Source: a virus (Duplodnaviria > Heunggongvirae > Uroviricota > Caudoviricetes). From it: a DNA stretch of 28,489 nucleotides. Location of the stretch: the IMG/VR virus record IMGVR_UViG_3300032323_003295, positions 1 through 28,489 of that record; one strand, 5' to 3'. The notes beneath the pieces are model-generated. The model was given only the letters and a program-made list of their open reading frames with translations, was not told the origin of the DNA and did not search any database. Below are positions 9,912-15,445 of the stretch, piece after piece. The number at the start of each line of letters is the position of its first letter. The stretch's first letter is position 1. Both the position numbers and the translations under genes were made by a program.

Positions 9912-10550
9912 ATGGCAGTATATAATAAATTTAGGTATATTTTTCCACCCAGACCCAAAAATGCAATTCCATCAGATGAATTATCTTTTTGGGATAATGA
10001 CTCATTACTAGGACAACCAAAACTTAATGGTTCTAATACTACTATTTATACAAATGGTGAAAAACACATTGTAATGAATAGACACAATCAAAGACTTACA
10101 AATTTCAGAATAACAGATGAAGAAGTTACTTCTATGTATAGAGGTAATGGTGAGTGGATGGTAATTAATGGTGAGTATATGAATAAATCTCAGAATGATG
10201 AAACTGGTAGACCATTTAATCATAAGTTTGTTATTTTTGATATTCTTGTTCTTGATGGTAACTATTTAGTAGGAACTACTTTTGAACAGAGAGTTGCTAT
10301 TCTAAATGACTTATATGGTCAAGTAGATTGTGAGAAAGAACATTTGTATGGTATTTCAGAAAACATCTACAGAGTAAAATCTTACAATGGTGGTTTCTTA
10401 GACTTATACAATGATTTGATTAAAGTTGATATGTATGAAGGTTTGGTTATGAAAAGAAAAAATGCTAAGTTAGAACTTGGTACAAATGAAATGAATAATG
10501 TAAAATCTCAGTTGAAATGTAGAAAACCAACTAAAAACTATGCTTATTAA
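9912..10550 (+). CDS. Minimal ATP-dependent ligase (adenylation domain only; RNA-ligase-like)
   Basis: Motif I PKLNGSN, III NGEY, IIIa FVIFDIL, IV EGLVMK, V QLKCRK. No room for an OB domain. Confidence 0.75.
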   Translation: MAVYNKFRYIFPPRPKNAIPSDELSFWDNDSLLGQPKLNGSNTTIYTNGEKHIVMNRHNQRLTNFRITDEEVTSMYRGNGEWMVINGEYMNKSQNDETGRPFNHKFVIFDILVLDGNYLVGTTFEQRVAILNDLYGQVDCEKEHLYGISENIYRVKSYNGGFLDLYNDLIKVDMYEGLVMKRKNAKLELGTNEMNNVKSQLKCRKPTKNYAY

Positions 10551-10585: not shown

Positions 10586-11161
10586 TTGGAAAAGTTTAGT
10601 AGAATAAAACCTAAAAATGAATTTGAAGATGAAAGTAAAGAAAAAGTTCTTTATTCTGATGCAGCAATAAAAGTTATAGAATATGATAATTGGTCTATAA
10701 TCAAAGAAAAAGATTTAGTTGTTTGTATTCCTTATTTAATAGAGAAAAATGAATTTATTTTAAGATATGAATATATACCAACATATTTTTTAACAGATGG
10801 TCAAGAATATCATGCAACTGTGGTTGGTGGACAAGTAGAAACTGGTGAGGCAATTGAAACAGCTATGTTAAGAGAGCTTGAAGAAGAAGCTGGTATAGTA
10901 GTTAATGAGAACTATAAATTAGATGCCTTGAAACCTTTGTATATCTCTAAGGGTTTAACATCAAAGTATCATCCTTTCATCATTCCATTAAATGAAAGAG
11001 AGTACACTGAAATAACTGCAACAGGCGATGGATCAGAAGTTGAAAAAATGAGCAAGTCTGTAAGAGTAAGTGCAAAATTTATTGACTCAGTAAAAACATC
11101 AGACTTAATAACAGATTATTTGTTATTGAAATTAAAAGAATATATGAACTTACAAAAATAA
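10586..11161 (+). CDS. Nudix hydrolase (ADP-ribose pyrophosphatase-like)
   Basis: GGQVETGEAIETAMLRELEEEAG Nudix box. TTG start. Confidence 0.85.
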   Translation: MEKFSRIKPKNEFEDESKEKVLYSDAAIKVIEYDNWSIIKEKDLVVCIPYLIEKNEFILRYEYIPTYFLTDGQEYHATVVGGQVETGEAIETAMLRELEEEAGIVVNENYKLDALKPLYISKGLTSKYHPFIIPLNEREYTEITATGDGSEVEKMSKSVRVSAKFIDSVKTSDLITDYLLLKLKEYMNLQK

Positions 11162-11186: not shown

Positions 11187-12559
11187 CTTTTATTTTCTAT
11201 ACCAAGTTTATTATTTAACATCCAAGTAACATCTGAATTAAAATCTTTTGAATCAACTGAACCATAATCAGAGAAATGAGGTTCAAACTTAAAAGTTCCT
11301 AAGTGAGCCTGACAATATTCTCTAAATACATCATAAAGTGAATAATCTTTTAAGAAGTCATAATCAAATTCTTCAATCCATTTATTATCATATTTAATTT
11401 TATAGAATGTTTGTACTTCTGGATAAGTATGTACTTCTCTTGTACCATCTGGTTTTGTATAACTCTTTTTAACTTCTACTTCTTTATCATATTTAGAATA
11501 TGATAATTCCGCACCATAACTTCTATCTCCAACAATATTATCAAACTCATTAACAAGATCTTTATAATTTTCATCCTGATGAGCACTTGAAGCATGATCC
11601 GCATAAGTTTGTTTAATATCTTGTACTAAATCAGAATTCTTACATAAATCAATTAATGTACTATAAAATCTTTCTTTAGTTAAATATTCTATAACTTCAT
11701 CTTCTGTTAATCCTTCTAATTTATCATTATCTGCTTCTTTAACAAGTTCTTCTAATCCACCATATTCTTTAATCAACGCTTTAACTAATAGAACTTCATT
11801 ATCTTTATTCAAATCATAGTTAAGTAAAGAGTTAGTATCTGGATAATAATCTGAACCCCAGTAGTGGTCACCATCTATTCCATCAATTAATTGACTTTTA
11901 TAACTTTTTTCATCACCTAATAATATATCAGCTAAATCTTCCATACCAACAACAATATAAATATCATTACCTTCTATAAAAGTATCTTTATCTTTTTCAG
12001 ATAACCAGCCATAATACTCACAAAGTTCTTTAACATCAATTTCTACTTCTTTCTTATCCATTACAAACAAGCCAATATTATTATCAATTTGTATATCTTT
12101 AGTCATATCACCACTTTCATCTTCTAAAAAGAATCCACCTTTTATCAATAATTCATCTAAATTTACTTCACTTTTATCTTCATATACTTTTGCTTCAAAA
12201 CCAAGGTCTTCAAAGTAATCAATTGCAGTTAAAACAACATCAGTAACATCTTCATTTGATGGTTTTGTATCATATATATTTATCCAGTATGCAGGTGTCA
12301 CTGAGCCTTTAACTAATTTTTGACCAAATACTTTATAATCATTGTGATACTTTCCACCACTATATCTATATTCAGTTTCTACAAAACCTCTTTCAATATC
12401 AATTGTATATCCTTCATCATTCATTTCAACAAATAACTCTTCAATTTTATCATCTTCAAGTCTATATGTTTTTATTTCTTCAACAGGTCTCATTACTTCA
12501 TCCATAGGAAATAAAGACAATTGTTGTTCTTTAATAAATTGTAAGTATCTTTTTATCAT
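11174..12559 (-). CDS. Large acidic protein with capsid-targeting-like N-terminus followed by QLSLF
   Basis: 461-aa ORF starting MIKRYLQFIKEQQLSLFP. D/E-rich. Confidence 0.85.
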   Translation of the reverse strand: MIKRYLQFIKEQQLSLFPMDEVMRPVEEIKTYRLEDDKIEELFVEMNDEGYTIDIERGFVETEYRYSGGKYHNDYKVFGQKLVKGSVTPAYWINIYDTKPSNEDVTDVVLTAIDYFEDLGFEAKVYEDKSEVNLDELLIKGGFFLEDESGDMTKDIQIDNNIGLFVMDKKEVEIDVKELCEYYGWLSEKDKDTFIEGNDIYIVVGMEDLADILLGDEKSYKSQLIDGIDGDHYWGSDYYPDTNSLLNYDLNKDNEVLLVKALIKEYGGLEELVKEADNDKLEGLTEDEVIEYLTKERFYSTLIDLCKNSDLVQDIKQTYADHASSAHQDENYKDLVNEFDNIVGDRSYGAELSYSKYDKEVEVKKSYTKPDGTREVHTYPEVQTFYKIKYDNKWIEEFDYDFLKDYSLYDVFREYCQAHLGTFKFEPHFSDYGSVDSKDFNSDVTWMLNNKLGIENKRNPS

Positions 12560-12561
12560 AA

Positions 12562-12948
12562 TTAATAGTTTTTATATATTGGTTCCAAATATGGTAATGG
12601 TTTTTTTAAGTACCAGTGTACTAATGCTCTGTGATTCCCTTCTACTCCAACTGATGGATAATCTAAACCTCTTTCTTGAATATCTTTAATAAGATATTGA
12701 ACATAAGGTTCTTCAATAATATCTTCAATCTCATTTCCAAAATGTTTAGTAACATATTCTTCAATTTCATCTACTGGTAACAACTTAAACTTCCACTGAT
12801 AATCTTCTGGTTGTTCATCACCATATTCATCAAACTGAATATCTATATCAGATTGTACTTCTTCTGGTAAATCATCATACTGATAAGTTTTACCTACTTC
12901 AAAGTCAAACTTATTAGTAAACTTCTCAAAAGTTTTAACATATTTCAT
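12562..12948 (-). CDS. Protein with capsid-targeting-like N-terminus and ParB/sulfiredoxin-like motif
   Basis: Starts MKYVKTFEKF. LIKDIQERGLDYPSVGVEGNHRAL resembles the ParB-N L..SI...G...P....DGxHR pattern. Confidence 0.6.
   Translation of the reverse strand: MKYVKTFEKFTNKFDFEVGKTYQYDDLPEEVQSDIDIQFDEYGDEQPEDYQWKFKLLPVDEIEEYVTKHFGNEIEDIIEEPYVQYLIKDIQERGLDYPSVGVEGNHRALVHWYLKKPLPYLEPIYKNY
12572..12581 (-). promoter_or_regulatory. Possible late promoter motif CAATATATAA inside the end of the upstream gene
   Basis: Core AATATATA 12 nt before ATG 12559. Also explained by codons PIYK. Confidence 0.35.
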
Positions 12949-12952
12949 AAAG

Positions 12953-12962
12953 GTATATATAA
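12953..12962 (-). promoter_or_regulatory. Putative late promoter motif TTATATATAC
   Basis: 4 nt before ATG 12948. Confidence 0.55.
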
Positions 12963-12963
12963 A

Positions 12964-12990
12964 AAAAAGAGAGTTAAAAACTCTCTTTTT
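12964..12990 (-). terminator. Intrinsic terminator
   Basis: AAAAAGAGAGTT-AAA-AACTCTCTTTTT stem followed on the minus strand by a U run. Lies downstream of 13013..13990. Confidence 0.85.
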
Positions 12991-13012
12991 ATATAGCTGT
13001 TATTATTTTTAA

Positions 13013-13990
13013 TTATATTTTAGAAAGCAATTCTTCTTTCTTTGTTGTAAACTCTTCTTCTGTTAATATTCCTACTTTGTGAAGTTCACCAAGTTTTTCT
13101 AAAAGAACAATACTATCAATCTTTTCTTGGGTTAGAGATATTGTAGTAGTTTTTTTTATTTCTTTTGTTTCAACTGGTTTTCTACTATCTGGTAGTAATT
13201 GAACTATAGTTGATGCAATGTAATAATTATCAAAGTCCATATCAACTGTTTCAAACTTTTGTTTAGATTTTGAACCTTTTTCTACTCTACCAGTTTCAAT
13301 ACTTAATGATTTCTCACTTGAGAAACTAGTTTGTGTAAAACTATTACTAATAGGCATAGAATCAATTGTACTTGAATAGTATGCATTATTTGTTGATTTA
13401 AGATTTGTTAAATCAATTGCCCCTGTTGAACAATAGACATTTCCAGTATTTGTAGTTGTAGTTGCAATTGAACCACCTATTGTTGTATTACAATTAGTTG
13501 TTGTAATTCCATTACCATAATAAACTGTATAAGGATTTGTTGTACCCCAAGGATAAGTAGGATAAACCCAGTAAGGATATGTTCTACCAGTTAGAATACG
13601 ATTAAACTTATTGCTCCAGTTTTCTAATGTAACAACAGATTCTCTATAGAAGAAAACTTCTAATAAACCATTTTTTGCAATTGCATTTGCTACTTCTGTA
13701 GTGTCTTCAACTTCATAAGTATTGAAAATGAATTTCTTTTTATCATCAATAAAACAATCTAAATAAAATCTTTGACCTGGATTTAATACCAGACCTGTTT
13801 GTGAAATTGATTTACCATTTAATTTGATGTCTGCTAGTATGCAGTCTTGAAGTGGATTGAAAAGTTCTATTACAAATTCTTCTTTATCTTGAAGATAAAC
13901 TTTTCCTTTTTTGATAGATTTTCTTCCTCTATCTTTTGAGTTAACTACCCACGCACTTGGTGTAGTAGTTGTTTTGACTTGTTTTGCCAT
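13013..13990 (-). CDS. Uncharacterised protein: N-terminal beta-rich domain, low-complexity T/Y/P linker, C-terminal SHOCT domain
   Basis: C-terminus LLEKLGELHKVGILTEEEFTTKKEELL fits the SHOCT consensus. N-terminal YLQDKEEFVIELFNP...LNG...GLVLNPGQRFYL. Confidence 0.8.
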   Translation of the reverse strand: MAKQVKTTTTPSAWVVNSKDRGRKSIKKGKVYLQDKEEFVIELFNPLQDCILADIKLNGKSISQTGLVLNPGQRFYLDCFIDDKKKFIFNTYEVEDTTEVANAIAKNGLLEVFFYRESVVTLENWSNKFNRILTGRTYPYWVYPTYPWGTTNPYTVYYGNGITTTNCNTTIGGSIATTTTNTGNVYCSTGAIDLTNLKSTNNAYYSSTIDSMPISNSFTQTSFSSEKSLSIETGRVEKGSKSKQKFETVDMDFDNYYIASTIVQLLPDSRKPVETKEIKKTTTISLTQEKIDSIVLLEKLGELHKVGILTEEEFTTKKEELLSKI

Positions 13991-14010
13991 TTTGTTTTTT
14001 TAATTTTTGG

Positions 14011-14070
14011 ATCCATATCTTTGATTCTTTTCAAAATCTCAAAGGCATCCTATTGATACCCGACATGAAT
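14011..14070 (-). ncRNA. Candidate structured cis-regulatory RNA (three-way junction) in a 5' UTR
   Basis: AUUCAUGUC-G-GGUAUC[AAUAG]GAUGCC-UUUGA..GAAA..UCAAA-GAUAUGGAU. 9-bp P1, 6-bp P2 and a P3 that can close a GAAA tetraloop. G-U pairs form only on the minus strand. Confidence 0.6.
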
Positions 14071-14088
14071 TATATAACAGCTATAATT

Positions 14089-14098
14089 TTATATATTA
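14089..14098 (-). promoter_or_regulatory. Putative late promoter motif TAATATATAA
   Basis: Recurring motif, 98 nt before ATG 13990. Confidence 0.55.
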
Positions 14099-14114
14099 GA
14101 TTTTTATTCTTTTG

Positions 14115-14146
14115 TTTGGAAAAAATAATAATTTGTATTATCTTTG
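14115..14146 (+). promoter_or_regulatory. Bacteroidota primary-sigma promoter (early)
   Basis: TTTG (14115-14118)-N20-TATCTTTG (14139-14146). 18 nt before ATG 14165. Confidence 0.75.
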
Positions 14147-14164
14147 TTAAAATAAATCTAAATA

Positions 14165-15445
14165 ATGACAAAATCTACACAATTCATACCAGAAGTTTTC
14201 ATTGAACTTACAAAGAATACATATCCTCATGGTAGTGAGAATATTATTGCAGATAAGATGTTCAAACTTGGTTTATTTCCAGAGGGAATAGATATGGATG
14301 AGCATGGTAATTACTTTTGTAAAATTGGTGAGTCAAGAACAATCTTTGCTTCTCACCTTGATACAGTTTCTAAAGTTCATGAACCAGTCAATCATGTACT
14401 TGATGGATTTATGATTAAAACAGATGGTACTACAACATTAGGTGCAGATGATAAAGCAGGTGTTACTATACTTACTTGGATGATGAAAAATAAAATTCCA
14501 GGTTTATACTACTTTTTTATTGGTGAAGAATGTGGTTGTATTGGTTCAAGTGCTGCTGCAAAATCTGGTGACTTCAAAAATTATGATAGAATAATTTCAT
14601 TTGATAGAAGAGCAACAACTTCAATTATTACACACCAATCTTGGTCAAGATGTTGTTCAGATGAATTTGCAGATGCATTTTGTAATGAATTAAACAAATC
14701 AGGTCTTTCTTATGTAAAAGATGATGGTGGAGTTTATACTGACTCTGCTGAGTTTGTTGATATTATTCCTGAATGCACCAATGTATCTGTTGGATATTAC
14801 AAAGAACATACTTTCAATGAAAGTCAAGATATAGAACATTTAGTAAAGTTAGCAAATGCTTGTCTAAAAGTTGATTGGGAAAACTTACCAACTAAAAGAG
14901 ATCCAAATGTTTATGAAGCAAAAGAATACAAAACTTCAAAATGGGGTGGTATTTATAGTGGTAGTAGATTTGATGAATGGGATGATGAAGATGTTGATTG
15001 GCATGGTTCAAAAAGAAGTGTTGGTACTTATCCAGTAACAGGTACAGGTTGGAGTAGAACTGGTGGTGTTACTAAAACAAGAGATTATGATTACTATGAA
15101 GATTGGTTAGATGAAGAAGATGAGGATGGTAATTATAAACACTATACAGATAGAAATATATTAGCAGATGATTTCTTTGAAAAACCAAAGAAAACAAGAA
15201 GAGGTAGTAAAAAGTCTAAAACTTATTTTGATAATGGAGGTAAGCTAATTGAGCTTGATAGTGAATTTGGTGTAAAACATTATGATTGGATAATGACTAA
15301 ATTTTCAAGTAACAAACTAAATAAAGAAGAGCTTGAAATTGTCAGAGAACAATACTTAGATATGGAGAATGACTATGATAGATACTTCTATGAGAATTTA
15401 GTGGATGAACTATTAGGTGATGATGAATATCACTTTTTTACATAA
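14165..15445 (+). CDS. M28/M20-clan zinc peptidase with long charged C-terminal extension
   Basis: SHLDTV, LGADDKAGV, GEECGCIGS, SFDRR, YTDS, EHTFNE zinc-ligand pattern. Confidence 0.85.
   Translation: MTKSTQFIPEVFIELTKNTYPHGSENIIADKMFKLGLFPEGIDMDEHGNYFCKIGESRTIFASHLDTVSKVHEPVNHVLDGFMIKTDGTTTLGADDKAGVTILTWMMKNKIPGLYYFFIGEECGCIGSSAAAKSGDFKNYDRIISFDRRATTSIITHQSWSRCCSDEFADAFCNELNKSGLSYVKDDGGVYTDSAEFVDIIPECTNVSVGYYKEHTFNESQDIEHLVKLANACLKVDWENLPTKRDPNVYEAKEYKTSKWGGIYSGSRFDEWDDEDVDWHGSKRSVGTYPVTGTGWSRTGGVTKTRDYDYYEDWLDEEDEDGNYKHYTDRNILADDFFEKPKKTRRGSKKSKTYFDNGGKLIELDSEFGVKHYDWIMTKFSSNKLNKEELEIVREQYLDMENDYDRYFYENLVDELLGDDEYHFFT

Follow-up and report, generated by a model that had tools for sequence, protein, structure and literature searches.

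Complementary arms at the two ends of a late-type megaphage gene covary across homologous loci together with a three-way-junction leader

A gene for a 325-aa protein in an environmental megaphage is flanked by two short arms that could close its message into a loop. Comparison of homologous loci showed selection for the complementarity of the arms, whose helix is here called P0; the arms keep fixed positions and are accompanied by a leader that covaries as well. Taken together, the analysis makes it likely, though by no means certain, that P0 is a real helix within one monocistronic late megaphage mRNA and that its job most probably concerns the stability and translatability of the message. 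The arrangement is best filed as a deeply conserved phage form of a known 5'/3'-UTR long-range interaction, joined to a new leader motif. The window analyzed here is the whole stretch of 28,489 nucleotides (28.5 kb) that forms the start of a 92-kb IMG/VR virus record (IMGVR_UViG_3300032323_003295), estimated to be 16% complete, with a GC content of 24–28% (approximately 27% across the window). The gene is a hallmark of environmental megaphages, and its family comprises more than 2,300 proteins.

The transcription unit lies on the minus strand and consists of the following elements, listed in the direction of transcription:

14089..14098, minus strand: promoter-like "late" motif TAATATATAA, putative function
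14074..14085, minus strand: 5' arm of the closing helix P0, UAUAGCUGUUAU, at the putative transcript start; covaries with the 3' arm
14071..14073, minus strand: 3-nt linker AUA between P0 and P1, from fold prediction
14011..14070, minus strand: three-way-junction leader, 60 nt, from the minimum free energy (MFE) fold and covariation
13991..14010, minus strand: A-rich unstructured leader, 20 nt, without a Shine-Dalgarno sequence, preceding the ATG
13013..13990, minus strand: coding sequence, 325 aa, ending in TAA
13004..13012, minus strand: A-rich spacer, 9 nt, from the stop codon to the 3' arm
12992..13003, minus strand: 3' arm of P0, AUAACAGCUAUA
12956..12990, minus strand: intrinsic terminator with a 12-bp stem and a 3-nt loop (12990-12964), followed by a U run

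An earlier note on this DNA had described two perfectly complementary arms, one starting 3 nt after a late motif and the other ending 1 nt before a terminator stem. The arms, TATAGCTGTTAT (12992-13003) and ATAACAGCTATA (14074-14085), are found exactly at those positions, are 100% complementary and have 1070 nt between them; each is present once, with no third copy in the window. The described spacing is likewise borne out on the coding strand, where the promoter-like sequence AATATATAA is followed by 3 nt and then by the 5' arm, and the 3' arm is separated by 1 nt from the only terminator-like hairpin of the region. The motif [ACT]ATATATA[ACT] occurs upstream of nine annotated gene starts in the window, at a spacing of either +4/+5 (three leaderless-looking genes) or +12 to +25. 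Since the late motif lies +4/+5 from the leaderless gene starts, transcription is predicted to begin at A14084, the second base of the 5' arm. A scan for sigma-70-type promoters gave hits at chance level.

Without regard to position, inverted repeats of 12 nt are no more frequent than expected by chance in a window of approximately 27% GC: we counted 44 perfect 12-mer inverted repeats with arms 200–3000 nt apart, as compared to 40.2 ± 9.4 in 200 dinucleotide shuffles of the window. The position of the arms gives a different result. All late motifs of the 92-kb record were combined with the next terminator-like hairpins on the same strand, yielding 47 pairs, for each of which we scored the pairing of the 22 nt following the late motif with the 24 nt preceding the terminator hairpin. 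The pair belonging to the gene for the 325-aa protein reached −15.6 kcal/mol, whereas the runner-up among the 47 pairs had −9.4 kcal/mol and random pairings gave −3.2 ± 1.9 kcal/mol, making the arm pair a clear outlier. Thus, although 12-mer inverted repeats are equally common in shuffled sequence, there is next to no probability that the arms are a chance repeat in AT-rich DNA; this explanation is refuted for practical purposes by the position-conditioned test and by the covariation of the arms across 16 arm classes, as described below.

The earlier note had proposed that homologous loci be collected and compensatory changes between the arms examined. We ran this check on 2 GenBank phages, 16 full-length IMG/VR loci and 80 metagenome loci, the latter drawn from at least 428 relatives; a seventeenth IMG/VR match covered the SHOCT tail only and was left out. 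The helix was called if RNAduplex gave −10 kcal/mol or lower for the 34 nt upstream of P1, the first helix of the leader, against the 34 nt after the stop codon. With this threshold, 59 of the 79 distinct loci, all on megaphage contigs, had P0 at the two positions seen in the window. The complementarity of the arms is conserved while their sequences covary: the helix varies from 8 to 22 bp and falls into 16 sequence classes, some of which are fully unrelated, such as CUUUUCCCGUU/AACGGGAAAAG. The window-type arms (..GCUGUUAU / AUAACAGC..) and the L008-type arms (..GCUGUUCG / CGAACAGC..) are connected by G-U intermediates (..UUCG / UGAA..). Other classes are represented by L024 (GCUGUUACAC / GUGUAACAGC), L053 (CAACUGUUCAUAU / AUAUGAACAGUUG), L075 (UAUAGCUGAUUA / UAAUCAGCUAUA) and L060 (GCUGUUCC / GGAACAGC).

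The arm sequences of the GC-richer and more distant clades, with 37–45% protein identity, are unrelated to the window type. Here, L083 combines CCUUUUCCCGUU / AACGGGAAAAGG with UUAACAUC / GAUGUUAA (13 + 8 bp), L088 has UGCCUUUUACCGUUUG / UAAACUGGUAAAAGGCA in an interaction of 16 + 8 bp, L094 has a 17-bp helix, L096 has CAAGUCCUUUACC / GGUAAAGGACUUG and the helix in L098 is approximately 22 bp long. When every arm was offered all 16 possible partners, its own partner was the best for 14 of the 16 5' arms and for 14 of the 16 3' arms. The natural compensatory changes in the 16 arm classes thus argue for pairing in the RNA.

Covariation was also evident within the CUGUU clade (39 haplotypes), where 86.8% of the cells were paired as compared to 77.4 ± 1.4% with permuted partners (maximum 81.8% in 500 permutations) and 25–43% in slid registers. 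Two inner positions of the helix switch in this clade, one between C-G, A-U and U-A and the other between G-C, G-U, U-A, C-G and A-U. Helix positions were occupied by G-U in 18 cells and by A-C in 8, a count that ignores kinship. The surroundings of the arms are conserved as well. In 52 of the 59 helix-bearing loci, a promoter-like motif preceded the 5' arm at a median distance of 4–5 nt, and in at least 53 a terminator followed the 3' arm. The distance from the stop codon to the 3' arm had a median of 9–10 nt in the homologues (range 1–13), and the orientation of the arms relative to the promoter and the terminator was identical in all 59.

The leader adjoining P0 folds into a three-way junction. 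The MFE fold consists of P1 (14070-14062 with 14019-14011), P2 (14061-14055 with 14049-14043) and P3 (14038-14033 with 14028-14023), the last of which is closed by a GAAA cap (14032-14029). When this fold was imposed on a MAFFT alignment of 74 leaders, 87.9% of the cells were paired, double changes were seen in 17 of the 22 pairs and the covariation score was 0.363 as compared to 0.06–0.11. A covariance-model alignment, which leans towards structure by construction, gave 91.1% paired cells, double changes in 19 of the 22 pairs and a score of 0.472 against at most 0.115. In slid registers, pairing fell to 33–51% in the MAFFT alignment and to 31–51% over the two alignments. RNAalifold recovered only P2 from the mixed MAFFT alignment, because the GC-rich clade was out of register. 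GAAA caps P3 in many members, with U-A and A-U alternating as the closing pair of P3. Thus, the three-way junction, which the earlier note had listed as a separate finding, is real and covaries among homologues, and the view that the gene is set in a purpose-built RNA architecture is supported by the arms and the adjoining junction alike.

The leader element is specific to the gene for the 325-aa protein, with one copy per genome: the leader model matched a single time in the 92-kb record and a single time in a 385-kb genome (95% complete), and it gave one convincing match in a 262-kb record. This specificity makes the junction more likely to be a gene-specific control site than a shared signal, and it is possibly bound by the gene's own protein product. 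A search of Rfam gave no match in the gene region at E-values up to 1.

Duplex energies do not discriminate between the strands, with the sense orientation favoured in 25 haplotypes and the antisense orientation in 31. The assignment of P0 to the sense strand therefore rests on context. The conserved G-U pairs in P1 and P3 work solely on the coding strand, and the junction, and by adjacency P0, was for this reason assigned to the sense RNA.

For evidence of transcripts, we compared positions 12500-14600 with the Logan contigs of four metatranscriptome runs, each from a different study. Relatives of the window's phage were present among them, and contigs from three studies (X15, X17 and X19) covered long parts of the gene body. 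The X15 and X17 contigs began exactly at 12995, inside the 3' arm, and the X15 and X19 contigs ended exactly at 14071, in the linker between P0 and P1; no loose contig ends were seen at these two positions in the four metatranscriptomes. None of the contigs from the four metatranscriptomes bridged into either neighbouring gene, and separate contigs on the peptidase gene were found in X15 and X19. The contig ends thus lie 13 nt short of the predicted start and just short of the terminator hairpin. Standard RNA libraries usually lose about 13 nt at RNA ends. As a weak hint, the contigs fit a monocistronic RNA bounded near both arms, or else processing in the linker between P0 and P1. The end at 14071 is the usual outcome of a start at 14084, and it hints as weakly at a start or a processing site downstream of the 5' arm, which also fits. 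No back-joined contigs, as would be produced from circular RNA, were found in the four metatranscriptomes, and contigs cannot show rare circles. One X19 contig joins 13057 to 14082, with a short side of 26 nt that is AT-rich; it probably stems from another organism or from a spurious join.

The reading that we favour is that transcription begins at or beside the 5' arm and would proceed through the junction leader and the open A-rich start region into the reading frame. The 3' arm, approximately 9 nt past the stop codon, would pair with the 5' end once it has been transcribed, that is, near the completion of the transcript. Such pairing would loop the whole message and bring P0 beside the terminator hairpin and P1 of the junction, so that the 5'-terminal bases would be buried and the 3' end braced, as in the 5'/3'-UTR helix of hbs from Bacillus subtilis, and the start codon would stay accessible throughout. 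Pyrophosphohydrolases of the RppH type and 5'-end-dependent RNases need unpaired 5' bases, and a paired terminus is a poor substrate. Protection would therefore be the simplest reading of P0. The locus offers a defined and testable model for studying why a message ties its ends together.

A local 5' hairpin would protect the message more simply, and the joining of the ends may itself be the point. Since the two ends are joined to each other rather than capped locally, ribosome reloading is a serious alternative: P0 would mainly join the stop codon to the start region, so that ribosomes reload or the junction senses termination, and stability would be secondary. The median spacer of 9–10 nt in the AT-rich clades approximates the leading edge of a terminating ribosome, so that the helix could survive translation, and the start region, predicted to be open, lies about 20 nt beyond the junction with the stop codon 9 nt from the helix. 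However, the spacer is 0–4 nt in the GC-richer clades, where a terminating ribosome would melt part of P0, and an arrangement of this kind is without bacterial precedent. We therefore hold this explanation to be unlikely, though the foremost of the alternatives, and regard with the same reserve a module in which the 5' end, the junction, the stop codon and the terminator meet in one hub that controls both ribosome reloading and mRNA lifetime. If such a module exists, the protein encoded by the gene may read the hub, or the hub may shield the message from a phage-encoded enzyme that attacks 5' ends; a NUDIX gene (10586-11161) is located 2 kb away. Somewhat less probable still is that P0, alone or stacked on the terminator hairpin, is recognized by RNase III or a different structure-specific nuclease, which would trim the primary transcript at both ends. 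The interaction reaches 21–24 bp in some clades (L083, L088 and L098), and the contig ends in the 3' arm and in the P0/P1 linker, each from two studies, could be products of such trimming. RNase III needs approximately 20 bp of double-stranded RNA, and P0 has just 8–14 bp in the window and most AT-rich relatives; the 12 bp of the window are short for the RNase III substrate that had been suggested, although P0 may stack coaxially on the terminator stem of 12 bp. The two contig ends also lack the 2-nt stagger of an RNase III cut and mark RNA ends only weakly.

The message could also be timed or latent, with the 5' arm masking the start region until the 3' arm has been made, or with a closed form that is inert until its 3' end is trimmed. 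When folded by itself, the leader forms a pairing of GCUGUU with AAUGGC at the start codon; in clades that use a Shine-Dalgarno sequence, CCUUU in the 5' arm is complementary to AAAGG, a Shine-Dalgarno-like stretch located before the start codon; and the arms pair slightly better with their own start regions (−7.0 as compared to −5.0 kcal/mol), ranking mostly 2–7 of 16. Against this stands the in silico folding of three constructs of the window, in which the unpaired probability of the start region stayed at 0.78 whether the 3' arm was intact, absent or scrambled, as well as the inconsistency of the effect across the 16 classes. Since the start region is predicted to be open with or without P0, the closed form would not be a silenced form; the reading frame of 325 aa is no small toxin, and 3' trimming would be blocked by the terminator hairpin. 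A timed or latent message is hence improbable, and the silent hok/aapA-type mRNA to which the gene had been likened does not agree with these results, nor was an antisense partner apparent; masking of the start region by the 5' arm was dropped as a candidate, its signal being weak and inconsistent. It is more doubtful yet that the arms act in the DNA, as invertase sites that flip the gene or as paired sites for a DNA-binding protein. Inverted repeats do flank the whole gene and the duplex energies cannot separate the strands, but all 59 helix-bearing loci have one orientation, the arms contain G-U pairs, and a search of the four flanking genes gave no domain of a site-specific recombinase. Unlike a protein site, the arms differ fully between clades in both length (8–22 bp) and sequence, with complementarity alone being kept. 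Ends of a transposon or MITE were rejected because the arms are single-copy in the window, the leader occurs once per genome and the flanks are a promoter and a terminator; there is no duplication adjacent to the arms, as had already been noted.

To our knowledge, few bacterial or phage mRNAs whose two ends pair over a long range have been genetically dissected. The 5'-terminal stabiliser hairpins of the E. coli ompA leader type protect from 5'-end-dependent decay by pairing the first nucleotides; such a hairpin is local, whereas the partner strand of the phage helix is located 1.07 kb downstream. In hok/sok and aapA/IsoA, the full-length mRNA folds back so that its extreme 5' end is paired with the region at its 3' end; this mRNA encodes a small toxic peptide, is inert until 3' trimming and is accompanied by an antisense RNA. 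Those reading frames are small (<60 aa) and membrane-toxic, and the start region is sequestered in the closed form, in contrast to the soluble-looking beta-sandwich and SHOCT protein of the phage and its start region, predicted to be largely unpaired.

Among known systems, hbs of B. subtilis comes closest: a perfect 14-bp helix between the 5'- and 3'-UTR, located just upstream of the intrinsic terminator, restrains cleavage by RNase Y, as demonstrated with compensatory mutants (Braun, Durand, Condon 2017; PMC5737220). Like the putative phage transcript, the hbs mRNA is monocistronic and has a highly structured leader and a 3' segment just upstream of the terminator, and the phage transcript shares with it complementary 5'-UTR and 3'-UTR segments within one transcript, the 3' segment just before the terminator. 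The two differ in that the 5' partner in hbs is inside the leader, after hairpin 2, whereas the phage 5' arm is at the predicted first transcribed bases. The hbs reading frame is also approximately 0.3 kb long and belongs to a host gene, as compared to approximately 1 kb in the phage. Furthermore, the hbs work (PMC5737220) reports no deep covariation in the gene family, as is seen for the phage helix. In Staphylococcus aureus icaR, the 3'-UTR pairs with the Shine-Dalgarno sequence, and this pairing prevents initiation and generates an RNase III site (Ruiz de los Mozos et al. 2013; PMC3868564). The phage 5' arm instead precedes the start codon by more than 70 nt, in front of a start region predicted to be open.

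The suggestion that this locus represents an undescribed system thus goes too far: 5'/3'-UTR helices just upstream of a terminator were already known from hbs (PMC5737220), and what is new is the predicted position at the extreme 5' end, the attached junction and the deep conservation within a family of phage genes. Natural variation has in effect provided many compensatory "experiments" for a helix that spans approximately 1 kb, in addition to an unreported structured leader. The order of promoter, arm and junction at one end and arm and terminator at the other is a signature independent of sequence by which the transcription unit can be spotted in metagenomes.

Not all relatives carry the helix. 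In an 11-locus clade (L010, L027, L032 and others), the junction is present without the 3' arm, the terminator being either directly after the stop codon or missing. No partner arm was detected in L014, L066, L068, L085, L099 and L100, and a search for a displaced 3' arm in L010, L014, L032, L066, L068, L085, L099 and L100 gave only weak matches within the coding sequence. P0 is thus dispensable in part of the family, which suggests that its role is modulatory rather than essential. In at least one relative, L094, P0 together with U7 may itself take the place of the terminator stem, in which case a free 5' end would be needed for the transcript to be completed. L004 has a reading frame for a GIY-YIG homing endonuclease within the transcription unit, between a diverged leader copy and the gene; deletion of the leader by the endonuclease was rejected when the diverged copy was found upstream of the endonuclease frame. 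L016 and L076 have an insertion similar to that in L004, and the core of their 3' arm is AACAGUU.

The 325-aa protein consists of a conserved N-terminal domain of approximately 120 aa, modelled as an Ig-like beta-sandwich, a low-complexity and variable middle part rich in T, N, S, Y and P, a conserved block (ETGRVEKG...SKQKF...LPESRKP) and a C-terminal SHOCT domain, which is replaced by a zinc ribbon in some relatives. Homologues were identified in 2,364 database proteins at E-values up to 0.001, all unnamed and on contigs of up to 656 kb. The SHOCT domain at the C-terminus was the sole Pfam match, and the only match in PHROGs was to an unknown family; in the Atlas, the family consists of hypothetical proteins, nearly all viral, with SHOCT or zinc-ribbon tails. 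A sequence profile search of the PDB gave no match, and a literature search for megaphage together with SHOCT found nothing. The full-length AlphaFold model was poor (pLDDT 45). The model of the N-terminal domain (pLDDT 71.6) resembled a generic Ig-like sandwich with a best Z-score of 5.4, and Foldseek gave no match to it at E-values up to 0.001. The late-type promoter suggests a role in the virion or in morphogenesis.

The region around the locus has 70–72% DNA identity to LR745206 and LR756502, two uncultured "huge phage" genomes of 635–642 kb, and a weak DNA match to the Prevotella Lak megaphages. Near-identical DNA is present in lake, estuary and wastewater metagenomes. The neighbouring genes encode a UvsX-like recombinase, a PhoH-like ATPase, a peptidase, a ligase-type nucleotidyltransferase and a NUDIX hydrolase, the last of which is located 2 kb from the gene for the 325-aa protein.

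The terminator of the target gene may have been merged with the long-range closing helix in one of the homologous loci, L094. The site is as follows:

L094, 1185-1299 and the 40 nt past the stop codon: site of the long-range helix

The helix is 17 bp long at this locus, and its 3' arm, CCGAAAGAGAGAAGGGU, is directly followed on the 3' side by U7. The 40 nt past the stop codon hold no hairpin apart from it. The terminator stem of L094 may be the long-range helix itself, with a loop of approximately 1 kb.

The arms of the GC-richer clades (L083-L098) contain CCUUU within the 5' arm and AAAGG within the 3' arm. Since the genes of these loci carry an AAAGG-type Shine-Dalgarno sequence, the 3' arm mimics a ribosome-binding site, and from these motifs the ribosome-binding site of the genes could be masked by the 5' arm. 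The 3' arm is absent in a clade of 11 loci (L010, L027, L032, L033, L040, L043, L046, L054, L057, L063 and L069). Their 5' UTRs display AAGUU-N3-5-AACUU at the place of the 5' arm, and the AACUU doubles as the start of P1 in the three-way-junction leader, which makes two alternative pairings possible.

A further variation of the transcription unit is an inserted open reading frame in three of the homologous loci:

L004, 1579-2411: GIY-YIG homing endonuclease, 241 aa; also in L016 and L076

In L004 the endonuclease frame separates the target gene from its three-way-junction leader, of which a diverged copy is present, and thus lies within the closed transcription unit. The first nine residues of the L004 target protein are unlike those in close relatives, as expected under co-conversion.

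In metatranscriptomes from two independent studies, RNA contigs stop at 14071, the last base of the linker between P1 and the long-range helix P0, and contigs from two independent studies likewise stop at 12995, within the 3' arm. These stops may represent processing sites, or simply the loss of ends in the libraries. A single contig from metatranscriptome run X19 connects 13057 with 14082 and leaves out the 1024 nt between them. Its short side measures only 26 nt, and it may derive from another organism or from a relative lacking the gene, or be a spurious join.

Two neighbouring genes encode predicted enzymes:

9912-10550, plus strand: ligase-type nucleotidyltransferase (Pfam DNA_ligase_A_M, 7e-9; RNA_ligase, 6e-7)
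10586-11161, plus strand: NUDIX hydrolase (1.6e-8), next after the nucleotidyltransferase

If the phage NUDIX hydrolase acts on RNA 5' ends, this would provide a reason for burying the 5' end of the late mRNA. Upstream of the leader in L008, L010, L012 and L013, the gene on the same strand has a zinc-ribbon motif (..FCPxCGT..) at its end, and in some homologues of the target protein a zinc ribbon replaces the C-terminal SHOCT domain.
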